A stretch of DNA of 64,000 nucleotides from an archaeon (GTDB taxonomy: Archaea; Nanobdellota; Nanobdellia; Pacearchaeales; GW2011-AR1): the NCBI GenBank assembly GCA_021107855.1, contig JAIORZ010000002.1, positions 245,425 through 309,424 of the forward strand, given 5' to 3'. Shown here in pieces: positions 1,923 through 10,289 of this stretch. How positions within the stretch are numbered: position 1 is the stretch's first letter; each line of letters begins with the position of its first letter. The notes below the pieces were generated by a model. It worked only from the letters and a program-made list of their open reading frames with translations, was not told the origin of the DNA and made no database searches. Made by a program: the position numbers and the translations under genes.

Positions 1923-2683
1923 GACTAAAAAAATTCATTAACATGAAAAAGATTATGAAGAAAGGGAAAATTTTGTTGTTGGCATACGACCAAGGGATTG
2001 AACACGGTCCCACAGACTTTAATGATAAAAATGTTAATCCGGCGTATGTAATTAACATTGCAGGGAAGGGCGGTTATACTGGCTTGGTCTTACAGAAAGG
2101 TATCGCAGAGAAATATTATGATGAAGTCAAAAAAGCAAAAGTCCCATTGGTTTTAAAGTTAAATGGGAAGACCTCTCTTGTGAAAGGTGACCCCGTTTCA
2201 AGACAGCTAGCAACCATCGAAGAAGCCATTGACCTGGGGGCCGTCGCTGTTGGATATACGATTTATATCGGAAGCTTTCATGAAGAAGAAATGCTAGCCG
2301 AAGCTTCAAGAATTCAAAGAGAGGCACACAAAAAAGGTCTACCTCTAATTGTCTGGATTTATCCACGAGGAGCAGGAGTCAAAGACATCAAAAAATCAGA
2401 CTTAATGGCGTATGCCACCCGTGTTGCATTAACCATTGGAGCAGACGTCGTAAAAATTCACCCTGAGGGCAATATGGAAGATTTCAACTGGGCTGTCAAA
2501 TCTGCCGGGAAGGTTAAAGTGATTTGTGCTGGCGGTTCGAAGATGAAAGAGAAAATGCTTTTGGAAAAGATTTCTGGCTATATAAAAGAGGGTGGAAGTG
2601 GGATGGCAATTGGGCGAAATGTTTGGCAGGATGAGAAGCCGTTGAAGTTAACAAAAAAAATAAGAAAGATGGTCTGGGGATGA
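1919..2683 (+). CDS. fba: Archaeal/DhnA-type class I fructose-bisphosphate aldolase
   Basis: LAYDQGIEHGP, LKLNGKT, WIYPRG, GADVVKI (Schiff-base Lys), AGG, AIGRNVWQ. Confidence 0.92.
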   Translation: MRLKKFINMKKIMKKGKILLLAYDQGIEHGPTDFNDKNVNPAYVINIAGKGGYTGLVLQKGIAEKYYDEVKKAKVPLVLKLNGKTSLVKGDPVSRQLATIEEAIDLGAVAVGYTIYIGSFHEEEMLAEASRIQREAHKKGLPLIVWIYPRGAGVKDIKKSDLMAYATRVALTIGADVVKIHPEGNMEDFNWAVKSAGKVKVICAGGSKMKEKMLLEKISGYIKEGGSGMAIGRNVWQDEKPLKLTKKIRKMVWG

Positions 2684-3306
2684 AGCCATTAATCGTTGTC
2701 AATCTAAAAACCTATCAACAAGGCAAAGAAGTTTTGAAATTGTGTAAGAAAATTGAGAAGGTGGATAAGAATATCGTCGTCGGGGTCCAAGCTAGTGACA
2801 TTCTTGAAATTACCAAGGGGACGAAGTTGAAAGTGTATAGCCAGCATGTTGATTATGCCGAACCTGGGAGAAATACAGGGTTCATTTTGCCTGAGGCTGT
2901 TAAAGCGGATGGGGCGAAAGGAGTTTTCTTAAACCATAGTGAGCATCCCTTGAGCTGGAGTGTTTTGAAGAAAAGTATTTTGAGGTGTCAGAAGATTAAA
3001 CTAAAAACAATGGTTTTTGCGAAAGATTTGAAAGAAGGAAAAAAATTAGAAAAGTTAAAAGTCGATTATGTTATTATCGAGCCGCCTGAATTGGTTGCTG
3101 GGAAAGTTTCGATTAGTGAAGCACGACCTGAATTGATTGAGAAAATTGGGAAGAAATTAAAATGTAAGTTTTTGGTTGGCGCTGGGGTTCATTCAGAAAA
3201 AGATGTTGAAGTTGCGATGAAGTTTGGGGCAGTTGGGGCCGCTTTGTCGTCGGCTGTGACGACGGCTAAAAATCCCGGGAAAGTTTTGAAAAAACTATTA
3301 AGTTAA
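2680..3306 (+). CDS. tpiA: Triosephosphate isomerase, archaeal type
   Basis: VNLKTY, LNHSEH, IEPPELVAG, GAGV, SSAV motifs; short archaeal length of 208 aa. Confidence 0.95.
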   Translation: MKPLIVVNLKTYQQGKEVLKLCKKIEKVDKNIVVGVQASDILEITKGTKLKVYSQHVDYAEPGRNTGFILPEAVKADGAKGVFLNHSEHPLSWSVLKKSILRCQKIKLKTMVFAKDLKEGKKLEKLKVDYVIIEPPELVAGKVSISEARPELIEKIGKKLKCKFLVGAGVHSEKDVEVAMKFGAVGAALSSAVTTAKNPGKVLKKLLS

Positions 3307-3307
3307 A

Positions 3308-3628
3308 ATGCACGAACACACATTCATAGAAGCCATCGTCAGAAACATCAAAGACAAAGAAGACGTAAAAGGGATTATTCTAGAAGTCGGTGAACTAGCC
3401 GGAATCGAACCCGAACACCTAAAAGAACACATCCAAGAAAAATTTGATTGGGATGTTGAAGTCCTAAAAAAAGACGCTCTAGTTAAATGCGAATGCGGAT
3501 TTGAAGGCAAACCCAAGGTTTTGGAAAGGTTGCATGATTTAGTTATATTCGAATGCGAAAAATGCGGAGAAGTCCCAGAAATTTTAGAAGGCAAGGATAT
3601 AAAAATTGTGAAGATTATCTATCGCTGA
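3308..3628 (+). CDS. hypA: Hydrogenase maturation nickel metallochaperone HypA
   Basis: MHE N-terminus, LEVGEL, two Cys pairs (CEC, CEKC), G-x-D-I-x-I C-terminus. Confidence 0.9.
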   Translation: MHEHTFIEAIVRNIKDKEDVKGIILEVGELAGIEPEHLKEHIQEKFDWDVEVLKKDALVKCECGFEGKPKVLERLHDLVIFECEKCGEVPEILEGKDIKIVKIIYR

Positions 3629-3837
3629 TGTGTTTAAGTATACCTGGCAAAGTAATTGAAATTAAAAAAGATGGAAGTTGCGTCGTTGATTACGAAGCAG
3701 AAAAAAGAACAGCAACTATTTTTACAGACGATATAAAAGTGGGAGATTATGTAATCGTCAGTGCAAAAGTTGTAGTCATGAAAATTCCGAAAGACCAAGC
3801 TCTCGATTATCTAAACGCCATAAAGGACTACTCATGA
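3628..3837 (+). CDS. hypC: HypC/HupF family chaperone (start corrected to ATG 3628)
   Basis: MCLSIPGKVIEI N-terminus, KVGDYVIV; ATG overlaps the hypA TGA; the usual His of VHxGxA is missing. Confidence 0.85.
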   Translation: MCLSIPGKVIEIKKDGSCVVDYEAEKRTATIFTDDIKVGDYVIVSAKVVVMKIPKDQALDYLNAIKDYS

Positions 3838-4319
3838 TGTCTTCTGAAGAGCTTTTTCTAAAATATTCATTCCCGTGTGCACATGTCTTATTGCAAGCTG
3901 GTGCGATGACGAAGGAAAGATATACAGAACTCGAGGAAAGTGCAAAAACAGGGAAATCATTATCTAGAGAATTAATGGAATCATCCTTCCCGTCGGCATT
4001 TAGAAGACTTGAAGAACTTGCCAAAGAGATGAAAATTGAAGACCACTGGGACATTAGAGTTATGAAAGAATATTGGCACAAAAGACATAATAAATTTATA
4101 GACAATAGAGACGGAAGTTACGCGAAATTCCCCGAAGTTTTTTGTGATTATTGCAAAGTTCATATAGCAGAGATTGTGGATATTTTGCCGAAGGGATTTT
4201 TAATGGTTGAATACAATAAAACAAGACGACCCGTTTCTGGTGATTATATTTCAAACGCGAAAATCAAAGATAAAGTCAGAATTCATCACGGTCATGCAAT
4301 AGAAAAAGTTGATGACTAA
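3834..4319 (+). CDS. Hypothetical hydrogenase-associated protein with a C-terminal HypC-like domain (DUF6390-like N-terminus possible)
   Basis: C-terminal ~55 aa CKVHIAEIVDI...RRPVS...KIKDKVRIHHGHAIEKVDD aligns by eye with HypC; LFLKYSFPC recalls the DUF6390 N-terminus. Confidence 0.55.
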   Translation: MMSSEELFLKYSFPCAHVLLQAGAMTKERYTELEESAKTGKSLSRELMESSFPSAFRRLEELAKEMKIEDHWDIRVMKEYWHKRHNKFIDNRDGSYAKFPEVFCDYCKVHIAEIVDILPKGFLMVEYNKTRRPVSGDYISNAKIKDKVRIHHGHAIEKVDD

Positions 4320-5233
4320 ATTTCATCCAATTTTCTCTCGCTCTTCGTCTTTATCACCAAATACGCCCCTATCAAAATCAATATCGAACCGATTAACTGC
4401 GTCGCCAAAACCTGCTCCCCCAACCAAACCACAGCCAGAATCAACGAAATCACCGGAGATATCAACAATATCGTCGCAGCCTTCGACAAATTAATATATT
4501 TAAGCCCCCAATACCAAGTCAGAACATAAGTGAAAAGCAGAGCTCCAGATATTACAATATAAAGAATTTGTTGTGAAGTTAAAGTTGCGATTAGCTGAAT
4601 TTTCCCTGTTAAAAATATTATAGAGAAAAGCACAAGAGACCCGAAAAACATCCTCGAGAAAGTTACCATCCAATTACTTTCCTTATTCAACATGGCTTTT
4701 TTGGAAATCGTATTTTCTATCGCCCAAAGAACCGTTGCTCCCAAAATCAAAAAATCGCCCATCCTAATCTCCGCAGAGAGTTTTGTGAATTCCATTATAA
4801 AAAGCCCAATCAACATTATTCCAAGAGCCGTTAGTTGTTGTTTTGTTATTTTCTCTTTTAAGAAAACAAATCCTAAGATTAATGCGTAGATTGGCAATGT
4901 CTTATGAAGAAACGCCGCCCTCCCGCCAAGCGTCATTTTAAGCCCCGTAAAGAACAACCAAAAAGCGAAGCCCCCACCGATAATCCCGATTGATAAAAGA
5001 GCTTTCCATGATCTTTCTTTCGGCTTCTTACATCCTCCTCTTCTATAAAAATAAAGCGAAATCAAAAAAAATATTATTCCAATTCCAAGACCTCTCATCG
5101 CCGTTAAAAGCAACGGGTCAATTTTCACCACAAAGAATTTATTCGCTATAATCGAAAAACCAGAAACAATCGCCGTCAGCAAAACAAGAAGTGTACCCCG
5201 AATCTCATTCTTAGAAAACTTCACCTTTTTCAT
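4316..5233 (-). CDS. DMT/EamA-family transporter
   Basis: About 10 hydrophobic helices in two repeats; P-I-Y-A-L-I-L-G-x-x-F-L-K-E-K-I and P-V-I-S-L-I-L-A-V-V-W-L-G-E motifs. Confidence 0.9.
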   Translation of the reverse strand: MKKVKFSKNEIRGTLLVLLTAIVSGFSIIANKFFVVKIDPLLLTAMRGLGIGIIFFLISLYFYRRGGCKKPKERSWKALLSIGIIGGGFAFWLFFTGLKMTLGGRAAFLHKTLPIYALILGFVFLKEKITKQQLTALGIMLIGLFIMEFTKLSAEIRMGDFLILGATVLWAIENTISKKAMLNKESNWMVTFSRMFFGSLVLFSIIFLTGKIQLIATLTSQQILYIVISGALLFTYVLTWYWGLKYINLSKAATILLISPVISLILAVVWLGEQVLATQLIGSILILIGAYLVIKTKSERKLDEI

Positions 5234-5283: not shown

Positions 5284-5670
5284 ATGGTTAAAATCATCTG
5301 CCTAGGGAACGAATTCATCGAAGAGGATTCTCTCGCGAAGGATATAGGTAAAAAATTAAAAAATGATTTCGAAATTATTAATATCAAAGACAGCTTCCAG
5401 TTGATGAGTATTCTAAATGACGATAGTGATTTCGTTTTATTAGACGTCGTGCAGGGATTAGACAAAGTTTGCTTGTTGGAAATAAAAGATTTGAAAAAAG
5501 ACACAATCACAAGTGCACACGATTTTGATGCCGCCTATGTTCTAAAGTTATTAAATAAAGACGTAAAAATTATTGGCATTCCAACGACGGGGAACTTAGA
5601 AGAAATCAAAAGAGAAGTCATCCAACTAATCAAATCCATTCAACTTCCAAAAAATGTGTCGAACAACTAA
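5284..5670 (+). CDS. Hydrogenase maturation endopeptidase (HycI/HyaD-like)
   Basis: IICLGNEFIEEDS, VLLDVV, SAHDF, IIGIP; converges on hydA with a 41-bp overlap. Confidence 0.8.
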   Translation: MVKIICLGNEFIEEDSLAKDIGKKLKNDFEIINIKDSFQLMSILNDDSDFVLLDVVQGLDKVCLLEIKDLKKDTITSAHDFDAAYVLKLLNKDVKIIGIPTTGNLEEIKREVIQLIKSIQLPKNVSNN

Positions 5671-6907
5671 AGCAAGGGTCATAAGCCCGAATTAATTTCT
5701 CTATCTGATTTACAATTTTCTTCTGTGAAGCTTTTTGTCTAAGGAGATTATCCACCAGCGACGTGATATCCACTTCCATCATATTAAGATTCTGCGCAGT
5801 CGGAGTTATTATATTACAATATTCTATTTCGCCCTTCCCATTTATTTTATATTCATGGAAAAGAGTTCCTCTAGGTGCCTCAACAGCCGAGACCCCAACA
5901 CCAGCCTTAATCTCAAGCCTCGAACTCTCCTCGTGAGCCGGCGGACTTTCCAAAAGCTCTATTATCCTATTAGTCGCATTCAAAATTTCAAGAGCCTGAC
6001 AAACTAAGTTATAATACGGATTTACAAAAGGAAGTTTCAAGTCAAGTTCCTTCAAAACAAAAGAAAGTTGCCGTTTGCTCTCAGGGTCCAACTGCTCCGA
6101 ATTATTACTTATCCTCGCAATCGCTCCCGCCGAATACGGCTTATCTTTATGCAAAACAAATTTAGAAGTTGCATATTCCTTAATATTCTCGGTCAGATGA
6201 GTCTTATAATCATCGTCTATAAAAGTCTCTTCTTGCGAAGCCACCCTCCCAGAGATATTCGCATACATACCCTCTTCCTTCAACGAAAGATACTCCGACT
6301 TCCTCTCCAATTTTTGATAGTGCAAACTCGAAAATAATTTAATCGTCTTTAGAATAACAGGCTTAGACTCTTTCAGATGAATTAAAATATTAGAAAAATC
6401 TCCGTGAGGAGAATCTTCATTAATTTTCAAAAACGGATGCATATCTCTCCCACCAAATTCTTCTACAACTTTATTTCCTAACGTGATTACTTTCAAAGCA
6501 TCATTCACCTTCCCCTTATCCTGTTTTTTCAAAGTCAAAGCAGAAGAAGCACCCAAATAATCAGGAAGCGACATAAAATAAAGATGCGTCGCATGACTCC
6601 GAATTCTCTCCCCTAAAAGAAGAATCTCTCTTATAAATTTCTGTTTCGGCGACGGATTTATCCCCAACGCCTCTTCCAATCCTTGAACAGACGCAACAGA
6701 GTGCGAACACGAACAAATTCCACATATCCTAGAAACTATCTCCTGAATATCCTCAATCTTTCTCCCAAGAACCAACGCCTCAAAAAATCGCGCACCCTCC
6801 GAAGCCTTCAAACAACATTCCTTCACTTTATCCTTCTCTATTCTTAGAGTTAAATGCGCGTGCCCTTCTATCTTACAAATATGATTCAAATTTATCTCTC
6901 TAACCAT
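5630..6907 (-). CDS. hydA: Group 3b NiFe hydrogenase large (alpha) subunit
   Basis: KIEGH, L1 SRICGICSCSH, EAPRGTLFH, L2 RAYDPCFSCSTH followed by a 7-aa cleavable tail. Confidence 0.95.
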   Translation of the reverse strand: MVREINLNHICKIEGHAHLTLRIEKDKVKECCLKASEGARFFEALVLGRKIEDIQEIVSRICGICSCSHSVASVQGLEEALGINPSPKQKFIREILLLGERIRSHATHLYFMSLPDYLGASSALTLKKQDKGKVNDALKVITLGNKVVEEFGGRDMHPFLKINEDSPHGDFSNILIHLKESKPVILKTIKLFSSLHYQKLERKSEYLSLKEEGMYANISGRVASQEETFIDDDYKTHLTENIKEYATSKFVLHKDKPYSAGAIARISNNSEQLDPESKRQLSFVLKELDLKLPFVNPYYNLVCQALEILNATNRIIELLESPPAHEESSRLEIKAGVGVSAVEAPRGTLFHEYKINGKGEIEYCNIITPTAQNLNMMEVDITSLVDNLLRQKASQKKIVNQIEKLIRAYDPCFSCSTHFLEVEWI

Positions 6908-7665
6908 TTCGACGACTCACCCTCCTCCTCTTTAAATGCTAACCCCGCAAAAGTCTCAAGTTTATCCTTTATCTCCTTATTGGTGTGCCCCATTTCTTTC
7001 AGCATCTTAAAAAAAGCTTCGTAATTCGCATCCTTACAGGGCCCCCGACACCCATAACAAGTCGTATCATTACTAGGACAAAGTGCACCACACCCTCCAT
7101 TCGTAATCGGACCCAAACATATTTTGCCCTCTTCTAACAAGCACGGGTTACCTTTTTTTCTACATTCAAAACATACAGGACTAGTATAAGACTTAAATTC
7201 TCTACCCGTCAAAATACATTTTACAAATTCCAAAATTTCCTTCTTATCTGGAGGGCATTGTGGAAGATAATAATCAACTTTGATATGGTCACCGATTGGC
7301 GTCGGGTCGACCTCTTTCAAATGATTATATTTTGGATAAACGAAACTCATTATTTTTTCCTGGTTATGGAAATTTCTAATCGACGGCACACACCCAAAAC
7401 ACGCACAAGAACCCAAAGCCACCACCTTATCCGAACGCTTCCTTAATTCATTTATTGTCACAATATCCTCATCAAAACAAACCGTCCCCTCTATAAAACA
7501 ATAATCAAATTTACCCTTATACGAATCTTCTTTAATAAAAGGAAACGACTTAATATCAACCATCTTTACCAACTCCTTAAAACAATCTTCATACAGAACC
7601 GTAAGCAAACAGCCCGAACATCCCGAAACCCCATAAAACCCAACCTTAATTTTTTCCTTCATCAT
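6892..7665 (-). CDS. hydD: Group 3b hydrogenase small (delta) subunit
   Basis: GCSGC, EGTV, GSCACFG, PQCPP, VCFEC, CLGPIT..GCGALCP, CYGCRGP Fe-S ligands. Confidence 0.93.
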   Translation of the reverse strand: MMKEKIKVGFYGVSGCSGCLLTVLYEDCFKELVKMVDIKSFPFIKEDSYKGKFDYCFIEGTVCFDEDIVTINELRKRSDKVVALGSCACFGCVPSIRNFHNQEKIMSFVYPKYNHLKEVDPTPIGDHIKVDYYLPQCPPDKKEILEFVKCILTGREFKSYTSPVCFECRKKGNPCLLEEGKICLGPITNGGCGALCPSNDTTCYGCRGPCKDANYEAFFKMLKEMGHTNKEIKDKLETFAGLAFKEEEGESSKWLER

Positions 7666-8471
7666 CTCCCCTCCTGACTAGAATTCTCATTATCCAGCCT
7701 CGGTTTTATTACATCGTATCTAAATATCGGTCCATCCTTACAAGCATACAAATCCTGAATCTGACATCTCCCACACGAACCAAACGCACACTCCATTCTC
7801 CGCTCCATCGACCAATATATATTTTCATTTTGCATCCCCAACTTATTCAATTCCCCCGTCGCAACATTCATCATAATTTCCGGACCACAAAGAAGCGCCA
7901 CAGTATTTTCCACATCCGGCTTATGCCTTTCCATAATATCATTTATGAAACCCTTCTCGTATTCGTGAGAATCAGGGTCGGAAGAAAGCCCAACAAAAAC
8001 ATGAAATTCCTCTTCCCATTTTTTTATCCTCTCCTTCAACAAAACATTCTCTTCATCCCGAAATCCGAAATAAATAAAAATCTTTCCAAACAACTTTTTG
8101 TTTTGCTCAATATAATTTATCATAGACGTTATCGGAGCAATCCCAGTCCCACCCGCTATCAAAATCAAATTCCTACTCTTCAACTCCTCTATCGGAAACC
8201 CCTTACCATACGGACCTCGGACAAATATACTACCATTTTTTCTCAAATTAAATATCGCAGAAGTCACATTGCCAGCATTCTTCGTTAAAAGTTCGAGATA
8301 ATCTCTGCTATGAGAACACGACGCAAGAGGACACTCCCCAATCCCGGGAACCGACACTTCCACAAAAGTTCCAGGACTCGGATTCAAATTACACTTTATC
8401 TTGAAAAGCTTCACGTCCTTCGCATAGCTCTCCACCGACGATATTTTATAGGATTTTGGTTGGTAACTCAT
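7662..8471 (-). CDS. hydG: Group 3b hydrogenase gamma subunit (FAD/NAD(P)-binding, 2Fe-2S)
   Basis: RGPYGKGF, AGGTGIAP, CGPEIMM, ERRMECAFGSCGRC...CKDGP. Confidence 0.92.
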   Translation of the reverse strand: MSYQPKSYKISSVESYAKDVKLFKIKCNLNPSPGTFVEVSVPGIGECPLASCSHSRDYLELLTKNAGNVTSAIFNLRKNGSIFVRGPYGKGFPIEELKSRNLILIAGGTGIAPITSMINYIEQNKKLFGKIFIYFGFRDEENVLLKERIKKWEEEFHVFVGLSSDPDSHEYEKGFINDIMERHKPDVENTVALLCGPEIMMNVATGELNKLGMQNENIYWSMERRMECAFGSCGRCQIQDLYACKDGPIFRYDVIKPRLDNENSSQEGR

Positions 8472-9418
8472 GATTTTGATATTTTATTTATTGTTTCGAC
8501 CCAGTCGATTTTTGTCGGACACACTCTCAAACATCTTCCACATCCAACACACATCGGGCGATTATATATTTTCTTATAATAAGATATTTTATGATACACG
8601 AAATGCTTGAATCTCGAAAGACGCGAATCCCGATATGATTTTCCCCCAGCCACACGCGAAAATGATTTCAACTGACAAGAAGCTTGACATCTTTTTCTCT
8701 CGCCATTTTTTAAATCGAGGTCAAGATCATCTTTTATATCAAAACAATTACACGTCGGGCAATATACCGTACAAGCCGAACAACTCAAACATTTATCCGC
8801 GTCCCCTTCCCAAATTTTATCCTTATAGTTTTCCCCTATCTCTAAATTTTCAAGTTTCTTAAAGTTCGCAGGATTCGGAATTTTGATCTCTTTTTTAACA
8901 GAAGAAAGATTTTTTACCAAGGCTCCCCCTATTTTAGAACCCACATCAATATAATAGTTCTCCCCCTTTAGGTAGAAAAAAAGGTCATGATAATCCTGAA
9001 GTTGCATCGAGTTACAAAAGCAATACTCGTCCGGATTCTCACAAAATAAACCAATTAAAACAGTATTCTTTCTTTTCGCAAGATATTGCTGGTCATACAT
9101 AACTTTATCGACTATCTGAATCGCATTAAGGTCACATTTTCTTAACCCAAAAAGAATCGTTTTCTTTATCTCGCCTTTCGTCTCTACCGCCTTTTTATTT
9201 TTAAATTCCAAAAGCGTTTCATCCTCTGGAAGAAATTGAATTTTTGCTGGGACCTGAGTTATACTATCAAAATAAATTTCATCAAAAGAACTTATCTTTT
9301 GGAATTTAGAATTCGGAGATTTCACCGGAGCCACAACCTCATATTTTTTAATTAAACTATCAATAAATTCCGGGAACTCTTTTTTCGGTAATATTTTCTG
9401 CATTTTATCATCTCTCAA
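8468..9418 (-). CDS. hydB: Group 3b hydrogenase beta subunit (4Fe-4S dicluster)
   Basis: GLRKCDL, CFCNS, CLSCSACTVYCPTCNCF, CVGCGRCLRVCP. Confidence 0.92.
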   Translation of the reverse strand: MRDDKMQKILPKKEFPEFIDSLIKKYEVVAPVKSPNSKFQKISSFDEIYFDSITQVPAKIQFLPEDETLLEFKNKKAVETKGEIKKTILFGLRKCDLNAIQIVDKVMYDQQYLAKRKNTVLIGLFCENPDEYCFCNSMQLQDYHDLFFYLKGENYYIDVGSKIGGALVKNLSSVKKEIKIPNPANFKKLENLEIGENYKDKIWEGDADKCLSCSACTVYCPTCNCFDIKDDLDLDLKNGERKRCQASCQLKSFSRVAGGKSYRDSRLSRFKHFVYHKISYYKKIYNRPMCVGCGRCLRVCPTKIDWVETINKISKS

Positions 9419-9458
9419 TTGGGAGAAGTATTATAAAGTTATAAACCTTTTCCAGGAT
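9419..9458. promoter_or_regulatory. Compact divergent promoter between hydB and the ROK kinase
   Basis: 40-bp gap containing ATTATAAA (9430) and GTTATAAA (9438), which can be read as TATA boxes on both strands. Confidence 0.6.
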
Positions 9459-10289
9459 ATGATTTTTAAAAAGAGAAAGAAGGTGATTGCTTTTGATATT
9501 GGAGGAACAAGCATCCGTTGCGGACTTGTTCAAGGAAAAAAAATTCTAAAACTTGTCCAGTGTGAAACTCCCAAATCTAAAAAACTATTTTTAGATAAAA
9601 TTTGCGAATTTACTAAAGAATTTATGGAAAAAGATATTGCTGGTATTGGCGTTGGATTTCCCGCCCCAGTTAAAGACGGCATCGTCAAAAACCCACCAAA
9701 TGTCAAATTAAAAAATTTCGATTTAAAAAAATATTTAAAACAAAAGTTTAGAAAACAAGTTGAAATTGCAAATGACGTAGATTGTGTTGCCTTAGCCGAA
9801 TTAAAACTTGGAATTAAGAAAAAGAATTTTTTCGTAATTGCACTTGGAACCGGAATCGGCGGTGGCGTTATTGTTAATGGAGAACTTTATCACGGAGGCG
9901 GAGGCTATGGAAGTGAACTCGGACATATAATCATTAATGAAAAGGATTTTGAATCATTATGGAAAGGGACGAAAAAAAGAATTGAAAAAGAATTTGGAAA
10001 GGGGATGTTAGTTCGAGACTTGGTTAAAATGAAAGACCCTAAGGCAAAAAAAATTTTAGAAGAAGCAGCGGATTATTTAGGCGAAGGAATTGCTTCTGTT
10101 ATTAGCGTTTTAGATTCTGAAGTCGTTGTTTTAGGGGGCGGAATTAGAGATTCCGGAAAAGTTTTCTTAAAAATGGTCAACAAAGGTGTAAAGAAATATT
10201 CTTTTTTACCGAAGAAAGTCCGAGTAATTTTTGGCAAGGTTAATATGCCCGGTGTTCTTGGAGCTGCTCTTTTACTAGACGAGAAATAA
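9459..10289 (+). CDS. ROK-family sugar kinase (glucokinase-like)
   Basis: AFDIGGT, GIGVGFPAP, ANDVDC, ALGTGIGGG, GSELGH, VVVLGGGI. Confidence 0.92.
   Translation: MIFKKRKKVIAFDIGGTSIRCGLVQGKKILKLVQCETPKSKKLFLDKICEFTKEFMEKDIAGIGVGFPAPVKDGIVKNPPNVKLKNFDLKKYLKQKFRKQVEIANDVDCVALAELKLGIKKKNFFVIALGTGIGGGVIVNGELYHGGGGYGSELGHIIINEKDFESLWKGTKKRIEKEFGKGMLVRDLVKMKDPKAKKILEEAADYLGEGIASVISVLDSEVVVLGGGIRDSGKVFLKMVNKGVKKYSFLPKKVRVIFGKVNMPGVLGAALLLDEK

Follow-up and report, generated by a model that had tools for sequence, protein, structure and literature searches.

Gene organization of the hydrogenase locus

In the window, the stretch of 64,000 nucleotides that was analysed as a whole, a small set of maturation genes lies next to the genes of a [NiFe]-hydrogenase. 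We use X as the name of the 161-amino-acid open reading frame at 3834-4319 and HypC* as that of its His-less partner HypC. The features are as follows.

3308..3628, + strand: hypA, nickel metallochaperone, 106 amino acids, with the N-terminus MHE and a zinc motif CxC...CxxC (Pfam HypA 35.3 bits, cut-off 28.9)
3628..3837, + strand: hypC*, His-less HypC, 69 amino acids (Pfam HypC 51.9 bits)
3834..4151, + strand: N-domain of X, residues 1-106, all helical, with conserved C15 (FPC), Y80, and H85-N86
4152..4319, + strand: C-domain of X, residues 107-161, HypC-type OB fold, with an internal Cys107 and an invariant His151
4316..5233, - strand: EamA/DMT-family transporter, 305 amino acids, convergent with X, the 3' ends overlapping by 4 nt
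5284..5670, + strand: divergent hydrogenase maturation endopeptidase, 128 amino acids (weak Pfam HycI match, E = 0.02)
5630..6907, - strand: [NiFe]-hydrogenase large subunit, 425 amino acids, with RICGICSCSH, EAPRG, and DPCFSCSTH, then a 7-residue tail
6892-7665, - strand: open reading frame of the small subunit of the four-subunit, group-3b-type enzyme
7662-8471, - strand: open reading frame of the gamma subunit of the same enzyme
8468-9418, - strand: open reading frame of the beta subunit of the same enzyme

The coordinates and sequences given for hypC and the 161-residue protein in an earlier note on this DNA are correct. hypA and hypC* share one base at the hypA stop, and hypC* and X share 4 nt (ATGA) at the hypC* stop. 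The four-subunit, group-3b-type [NiFe]-hydrogenase spans 5630-9418 on the - strand; the orthologues of its small, gamma, and beta subunits in a related locus (L005) match Pfam Oxidored_q6, NAD_binding_1/DHODB_Fe-S_bind, and Fer4_22. Upstream, three sugar-metabolism genes adjoin hypA-hypC*-X, each junction being an overlap or a gap of 1 nt, namely a pfkB-type kinase (1002-1922, +), a DeoC/aldolase-type gene (1919-2683, +), and triose-phosphate isomerase (2680-3306, +). The isomerase gene also lies within ~2 kb upstream of hypA, usually immediately before it, in the relatives L005, L007, L009, L012, L033, and L097.

HypC* lacks the conserved histidine

HypC* begins with MCLSIPGK and continues as GDYVIVSAKVVV. 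It scores 51.9 bits against Pfam HypC, above the cut-off of 28.5, and 36.8 bits against TIGR00074, for which the cut-off is 48. The N-terminal Met-Cys is kept, and a serine (VIVSAK) occupies the position at which the HypC consensus VLVHaGFAi has histidine, just as the earlier note had described. The histidine is absent from all 31 X-linked HypCs, that of the window included, and from all 19 HypCs linked to DUF6390, a family treated below; in these 50 proteins, its position is taken by S, T, Q, N, G, V, M, or L, and the Met-Cys is kept in every one. In comparison, the eight HypD-linked HypCs all keep it in the form VL(V/I)H(A/V)GFAI. No second, His-bearing HypC was found in any of the 25 X genomes. 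A His-less HypC working with a standard HypD in a genome devoid of the partner protein would have spoken against a division of HypC function between two proteins; we looked for this combination among the 31 + 19 His-less and 8 His-bearing HypCs and never found it.

Structure and conserved residues of X

The AF2 model of X (pLDDT 91.3, pTM 0.82) has seven helices in residues 4-107 and, after them, five strands. In Foldseek, the modelled C-domain aligns with HypC from the HypCDE complex (3vyt_A) over 51 columns with a TM score of 0.86 and an rmsd of 1.3 Å. A profile of 107 members of the X family, when searched against the PDB, matches the T. kodakarensis HypC (2z1c) with E = 3e-9, and in this alignment, C107 of X falls on Cys2 of HypC and H151 falls on the HypC histidine. 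By profile and by Foldseek alike, the HypC-like domain with which the protein had been said to end does adopt the HypC OB fold. The last strand of the model comprises residues 154-158, and since X is only 161 residues long, it has no counterpart of the C-terminal helix of HypC.

The single-sequence scores are lower. Residues 113-160 match Pfam HypC with E = 1e-4 at 22.7 bits, under the cut-off of 28.5, and X reaches 14.1 bits of the 48 demanded by TIGR00074; 66 of the 107 family members match Pfam HypC at E < 0.01. Among metagenomic representatives clustered at 50% identity, the X family comprises 288 relatives at E <= 0.001. Some of its members are labelled as HypC-family proteins at NCBI and others as hypothetical. 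A decaying hypC duplicate was considered as an account of X and rejected in view of the 288 clusters, the invariant residues, and the confident two-domain model.

The N-domain, modelled alone, reaches a pLDDT of 95.4. It gave no fold match in a Foldseek search of the PDB (best E = 5.8), and the whole of X matched only HypC and generic OB folds there; the confident helical model with no PDB match agrees with the suggestion that this domain is novel. That the N-domain might be a remnant of HypD was rejected, the hhalign probability being 0.7%.

Two histidines are invariant in the X family, H85 in the N-domain and H151 in the C-domain (each 107/107). C107 is Cys in 102 members and Ser in four, C15 is kept in 99 members and replaced in the other eight, and N86 and Y80 of the N-domain are each found in 98. 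C104, H17, H152, and H154 are not conserved among the 107 members. Each domain of X thus has one nearly invariant cysteine and one invariant histidine. These counts refine the three short segments that had been singled out from the single sequence: in FCDYCKVH, the second cysteine (C107) is conserved but C104 is variable; in YSFPCAH, C15 is conserved but H17 is variable; and in the His-rich IHHGH segment, H151 is invariant but the other histidines are variable. The invariant H85 of the N-domain had no place in that account. The occurrence of Ser in 4/107 members indicates that the cysteine matching Cys2 of HypC is not strictly required in X.

Some variants deserve description. In the X genes of L038, L039, L042, L043, and L047, Ser replaces the equivalent of HypC Cys2, with C15, H85, and H151 retained; the partner HypCs of L042, L043, and L047 have the N-terminus MCL(A/K)YP(V/I) and end in Gly-Cys. 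Distant X members (25-30% identity) lie beside a minimal two-subunit hydrogenase in L031 (10001-12700) and L032 (9120-11793), the small subunit of which has 160 amino acids, like the CPR 'hyd2' type. L031 has no hypC open reading frame upstream of X, and L032 has a 61-amino-acid open reading frame there.

X is related to DUF6390

Against Pfam DUF6390 (PF19927), X of the window gives a weak match (E = 0.028, 14.3 bits) that does not reach the cut-off of 25; other X members score up to ~22 bits, and true DUF6390 proteins of the same phylum score 101-163 bits. The match is collinear at both ends, with residues 6-82 of X members on profile positions 7-76 and residues ~133-163 on 191-223. A profile-profile comparison (hhalign) of X with the DUF6390 proteins of the phylum gave a probability of 98.6% and E = 1.4e-15 over 165 columns, which turns the weak match, put forward earlier as something to be checked, into real homology. 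In this alignment, C107 and H151 of X fall on the invariant C152 and H210 of DUF6390. X is, as judged by these profiles, a shortened archaeal DUF6390 homologue that is missed by Pfam.

Absence of HypD, HypE, and HypF

Our survey covered 301 Nanoarchaeota genomes, all of them metagenome-assembled genomes of probable symbionts. Six related DPANN loci that bear names are assigned to Nanoarchaeota, Woesearchaeota, or Pacearchaeota. X is carried by 25/301 genomes; the genome of the window has 936 kb and is 85% complete, and the other 24 are 92-100% complete. In the 85% complete genome of the window, we found none of HypD, HypE, and HypF and only two HypC-like genes.

HypE and HypF were scored in the 25 X genomes and in eight genomes with standard HypC only. 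The X genomes, which have the short form of the protein, yielded no HypD, HypE, or HypF over the cut-offs, whereas the standard-HypC genomes have HypD and HypE in 8/8 and HypF likewise in 8/8 (six over the cut-off and two split or truncated). X and HypD are therefore mutually exclusive in 33/33 genomes (Fisher p = 7e-8), all of which encode a NiFe large subunit. HypB is uninformative as a discriminating marker; it is absent from all 25 X genomes, but only three of the eight HypD genomes carry it.

A further 20 genomes with full-length DUF6390 were recovered via their EamA transporter orthologue and scored for HypD. A hydrogenase large subunit lies nearby in 18/20 of these loci, and HypD occurs in one genome (G247). 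X or DUF6390 is present in 45 of the 53 hydrogenase-bearing genomes found, and 44 of these 45 show no HypD. G247 (locus L078), the sole genome with both the DUF6390 module and HypD, has the latter at the start of another contig (C24:128-1180), and this HypD may belong to a second system or reflect a binning error.

Conserved neighbourhood, EamA transporter, and gene fusions

The order hypA-hypC*-X is conserved, and hypC* and X overlap or abut in most loci. Among 34 related loci, hypA lies upstream of hypC in 30, and the protease gene lies beside that of the large subunit in 29. Clustering of the open reading frames within ~8 kb of X in the 34 loci returned only hypA, hypC*, X, eamA, the protease gene, and the hydrogenase subunit genes as conserved, and no gene for making CN or CO is part of this conserved neighbourhood. 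In L007, an MmeI-type restriction-modification gene (7006-10044) stands between the protease and hydrogenase genes.

Orthologues of the EamA transporter (E <= 1e-30) are found in 40/301 genomes, and all 40 are linked: in 20 genomes the gene lies no more than ~1.2 kb from X, and in the other 20 it immediately precedes DUF6390. Since every orthologue-level copy adjoins X or DUF6390, we rejected the idea of a chance neighbour. The orthologue is absent from the eight HypDEF genomes and from five X genomes, which shows that EamA is not obligatory. The transporter may be relevant to ligand supply, although any such role is a guess. In all 20 DUF6390 loci, the DUF6390 gene directly follows eamA and is next to a HypC, with HypA, the protease, and the hydrogenase nearby in most of them. 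In G232 (L087), two tandem DUF6390-like genes follow eamA (6810-7601 and 7634-8269), the second being divergent (211 amino acids, 28.5 bits).

Fusion of two genes is a classic indication that their products work together. We found two independent in-frame HypC*::X fusion genes in metagenomic loci, P0036 (L096, 6001-6672) and P0044 (L097, 6001-6702), both of which keep the N-terminal Met-Cys and have the same genomic context; an apparent third fusion, P0053, looks truncated. The 4-nt gene overlap, the conserved synteny, and the two fusion genes lend indirect support to a putative HypC*-X heterodimer.

The hydrogenase keeps its active-site motifs

In the X loci, RxCGxCxxxH, DPCxxCxxH, and a short tail are kept in every large subunit for which the relevant region was recovered, and EAPRG is kept, with one exception, in the complete large-subunit sequences. 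The first of these motifs in the window (RICGICSCSH) has an extra cysteine at a place that is variable among the relatives (CSCAH, CSSAH, CSVSH). In a maximum-likelihood tree, the large subunits of X genomes intermix with those of HypD genomes, and the well-supported branches require no fewer than four changes between maturation types; hence, both maturation sets are found serving the same clades of the enzyme.

A proposed role for HypC* and X

HypC, HypD, HypE, and HypF are generally regarded as the universal machinery by which the Fe(CN)2CO moiety of [NiFe]-hydrogenases is built, and the pattern described above suggests that this enzyme is matured in a manner not described so far. We lean towards the reading that X and the translationally coupled HypC* are an accessory maturation pair that replaces the HypC-HypD scaffold. 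X is best read as the iron scaffold partner of HypC*, being analogous to HypD and not homologous with it. HypC* would supply the free N-terminal cysteine, and X would supply the histidine lost from HypC*, together with C15 and H85 of the N-domain, so as to hold the iron unit at the interface. HypC* would pass the iron unit on to the large subunit, after which HypA would insert nickel and the small protease would trim the 7-residue tail. The earlier suggestion that the larger protein stands in for part of HypD in a reduced pathway finds strong support in the distribution of HypD, HypE, and HypF (0/25 X genomes versus 8/8 genomes without X), but the N-domain is unrelated to HypD, and with an hhalign probability of 0.7%, any replacement would be by analogy.

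Several observations weigh against this proposal. The chemistry of HypC is thought to need an N-terminal cysteine, and the cysteine of X is, by alignment, internal (residue 107). C107 is Ser in 4/107 members and C15 is replaced in 8/107. The origin of all the genomes from metagenome assembly, the 85% completeness of the assembly of the window, the HypD of G247, and the five X genomes that have no EamA orthologue are also counted against it. Furthermore, the HypC*-X pair alone cannot explain cofactor synthesis, there being no evident CN-/CO route when HypE and HypF are missing.

One competing view is that X is a specialised HypC paralogue, comparable with HupF, HoxL, and HybG, whose task is to hold or protect the large subunit in its apo form. 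The iron cofactor or the activities of HypD/E/F would then be provided by other genes or by the host of the episymbiont, and EamA might bring in either a precursor or a unit assembled beforehand. HupF is an example of a HypC paralogue with additional domains, and DPANN archaea depend on hosts; the C-domain of X is a true HypC homologue, the eamA gene is closely tied to the module, and the neighbourhood conserved among the 34 loci contains no gene that makes CN or CO, all of which suits such a paralogue. Nevertheless, we regard it as rather unlikely, for it leaves unexplained why the partner HypCs have lost their histidine exactly where HypD is absent and why the N-domain of X has an invariant histidine and a nearly invariant cysteine, and the HypC*::X fusions point to X acting with HypC* and not instead of it.

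It is less probable still that the metal site of these hydrogenases differs from the standard one or is simpler, lacking cyanide ligands for example, with X or DUF6390 as the assembly factor of the variant site. The absence of HypE and HypF from 25/25 X genomes would fit, as we know of no route to cyanide other than that of HypE and HypF, and so would the conservation of a replacement module. However, the retention of RxCGxCxxxH, EAPRG, DPCxxCxxH, and the cleavable tail argues for the same active site, and the large subunits intermix phylogenetically with those of relatives that bear HypCDEF. Finally, the missing hypD, hypE, and hypF could be an artefact of incomplete metagenome bins, with X an extra beside a normal pathway. 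The completeness of the window assembly (85%) and the one DUF6390 genome with HypD on a contig end could be taken in this sense, but we give it very little credence: 24 other X genomes at 92-100% completeness have none of the three genes (0/24), all eight comparison genomes of similar quality carry all three, and the loss of the HypC histidine follows the same split exactly.

Returning to the scaffold reading, a broader claim can be made tentatively, as one that we find possible and would not yet call probable. The majority of Nanoarchaeota with a hydrogenase (45 of the 53 found) might dispense with HypD, HypE, and HypF in maturing a [NiFe]-hydrogenase of standard appearance, relying on a self-contained module of HypC*, X or DUF6390, usually EamA, HypA, and the small protease. 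The pair of HypC* with X or DUF6390 would be a new iron scaffold in this module, and a novel route of synthesis or import would supply the diatomic ligands.

Missing hypDEF genes in a genome are often read as a sign of a non-functional hydrogenase. Here, archaeal lineages keep intact hydrogenases, and HypD, HypE, and HypF are swapped for a conserved, uncharacterised module centred on X. A sufficient module would amount to a second maturation route; it would change the inference of hydrogen metabolism from genomes, and it would allow hydrogenases to be expressed in other hosts from far fewer genes. If the module is insufficient, the symbionts must obtain the cofactor or its ligands from their hosts, which would also be new. 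Either way, DUF6390 and its short relatives gain a testable function.

Comparison with known systems

In its C-domain, X shares the OB fold of the HypC/HybG/HupF chaperones (PF01455, TIGR00074; 2z1c, 3vyr-3vyu), the cysteine and histidine of this domain align with Cys2 and the conserved histidine of HypC (His45 in T. kodakarensis and His51 in E. coli), and X is likewise encoded in a hyp/hydrogenase cluster. Unlike these chaperones, X has its cysteine in an internal position behind a helical domain of 106 residues and has no C-terminal helix; it falls under the Pfam and TIGRFAM cut-offs and coexists with a separate HypC in genomes that have no HypD.

The role proposed for X resembles that of the HypC-HypD scaffold in the HypCDEF pathway, in which the iron unit sits between the N-terminal cysteine of HypC and Cys/His residues of the partner and then passes to the large subunit. 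The two differ in that the N-domain of X has no sequence similarity to HypD (0.7%) and lacks the [4Fe-4S] cysteine motif, GPGCPVC, and GFETT, and HypE and HypF are also missing from the X genomes.

DUF6390, a family of ~240 amino acids with unknown function, is homologous with X over its whole length, in both domains, and occurs in the same Nanoarchaeota context of His-less hypC, hypA, eamA, protease, and hydrogenase, with HypD absent. X is ~80 residues shorter and lacks the central PHHxFNVxYVGVG segment with its invariant histidine, the OB-domain insert, and the C-terminal helix. The N-domain Cys and His lie at positions that do not align, C15 and H85 in X as against C24 (the YCGP cysteine) and H126 in DUF6390. 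The gene order differs as well, since X follows hypC and is convergent with eamA, whereas DUF6390 follows eamA on the same strand. In the literature that we searched, DUF6390 is not mentioned, and no paper combines HypC, HypD, and DPANN.

Group-3b-related hydrogenase loci of the 'hyd1/hyd2' type with a nearby hypC-like family have been described in CPR by Jaffe et al. 2020 (PMC7304191), according to whom some may 'support function with unknown genes'. Those loci share with the present ones the small-genome organisms, the group-3b-type hydrogenases, and the nearby hypC-like family; that paper gives no account of the maturation genes, DUF6390, the His-less HypC, or the absence of HypDEF, and the case described here is archaeal.
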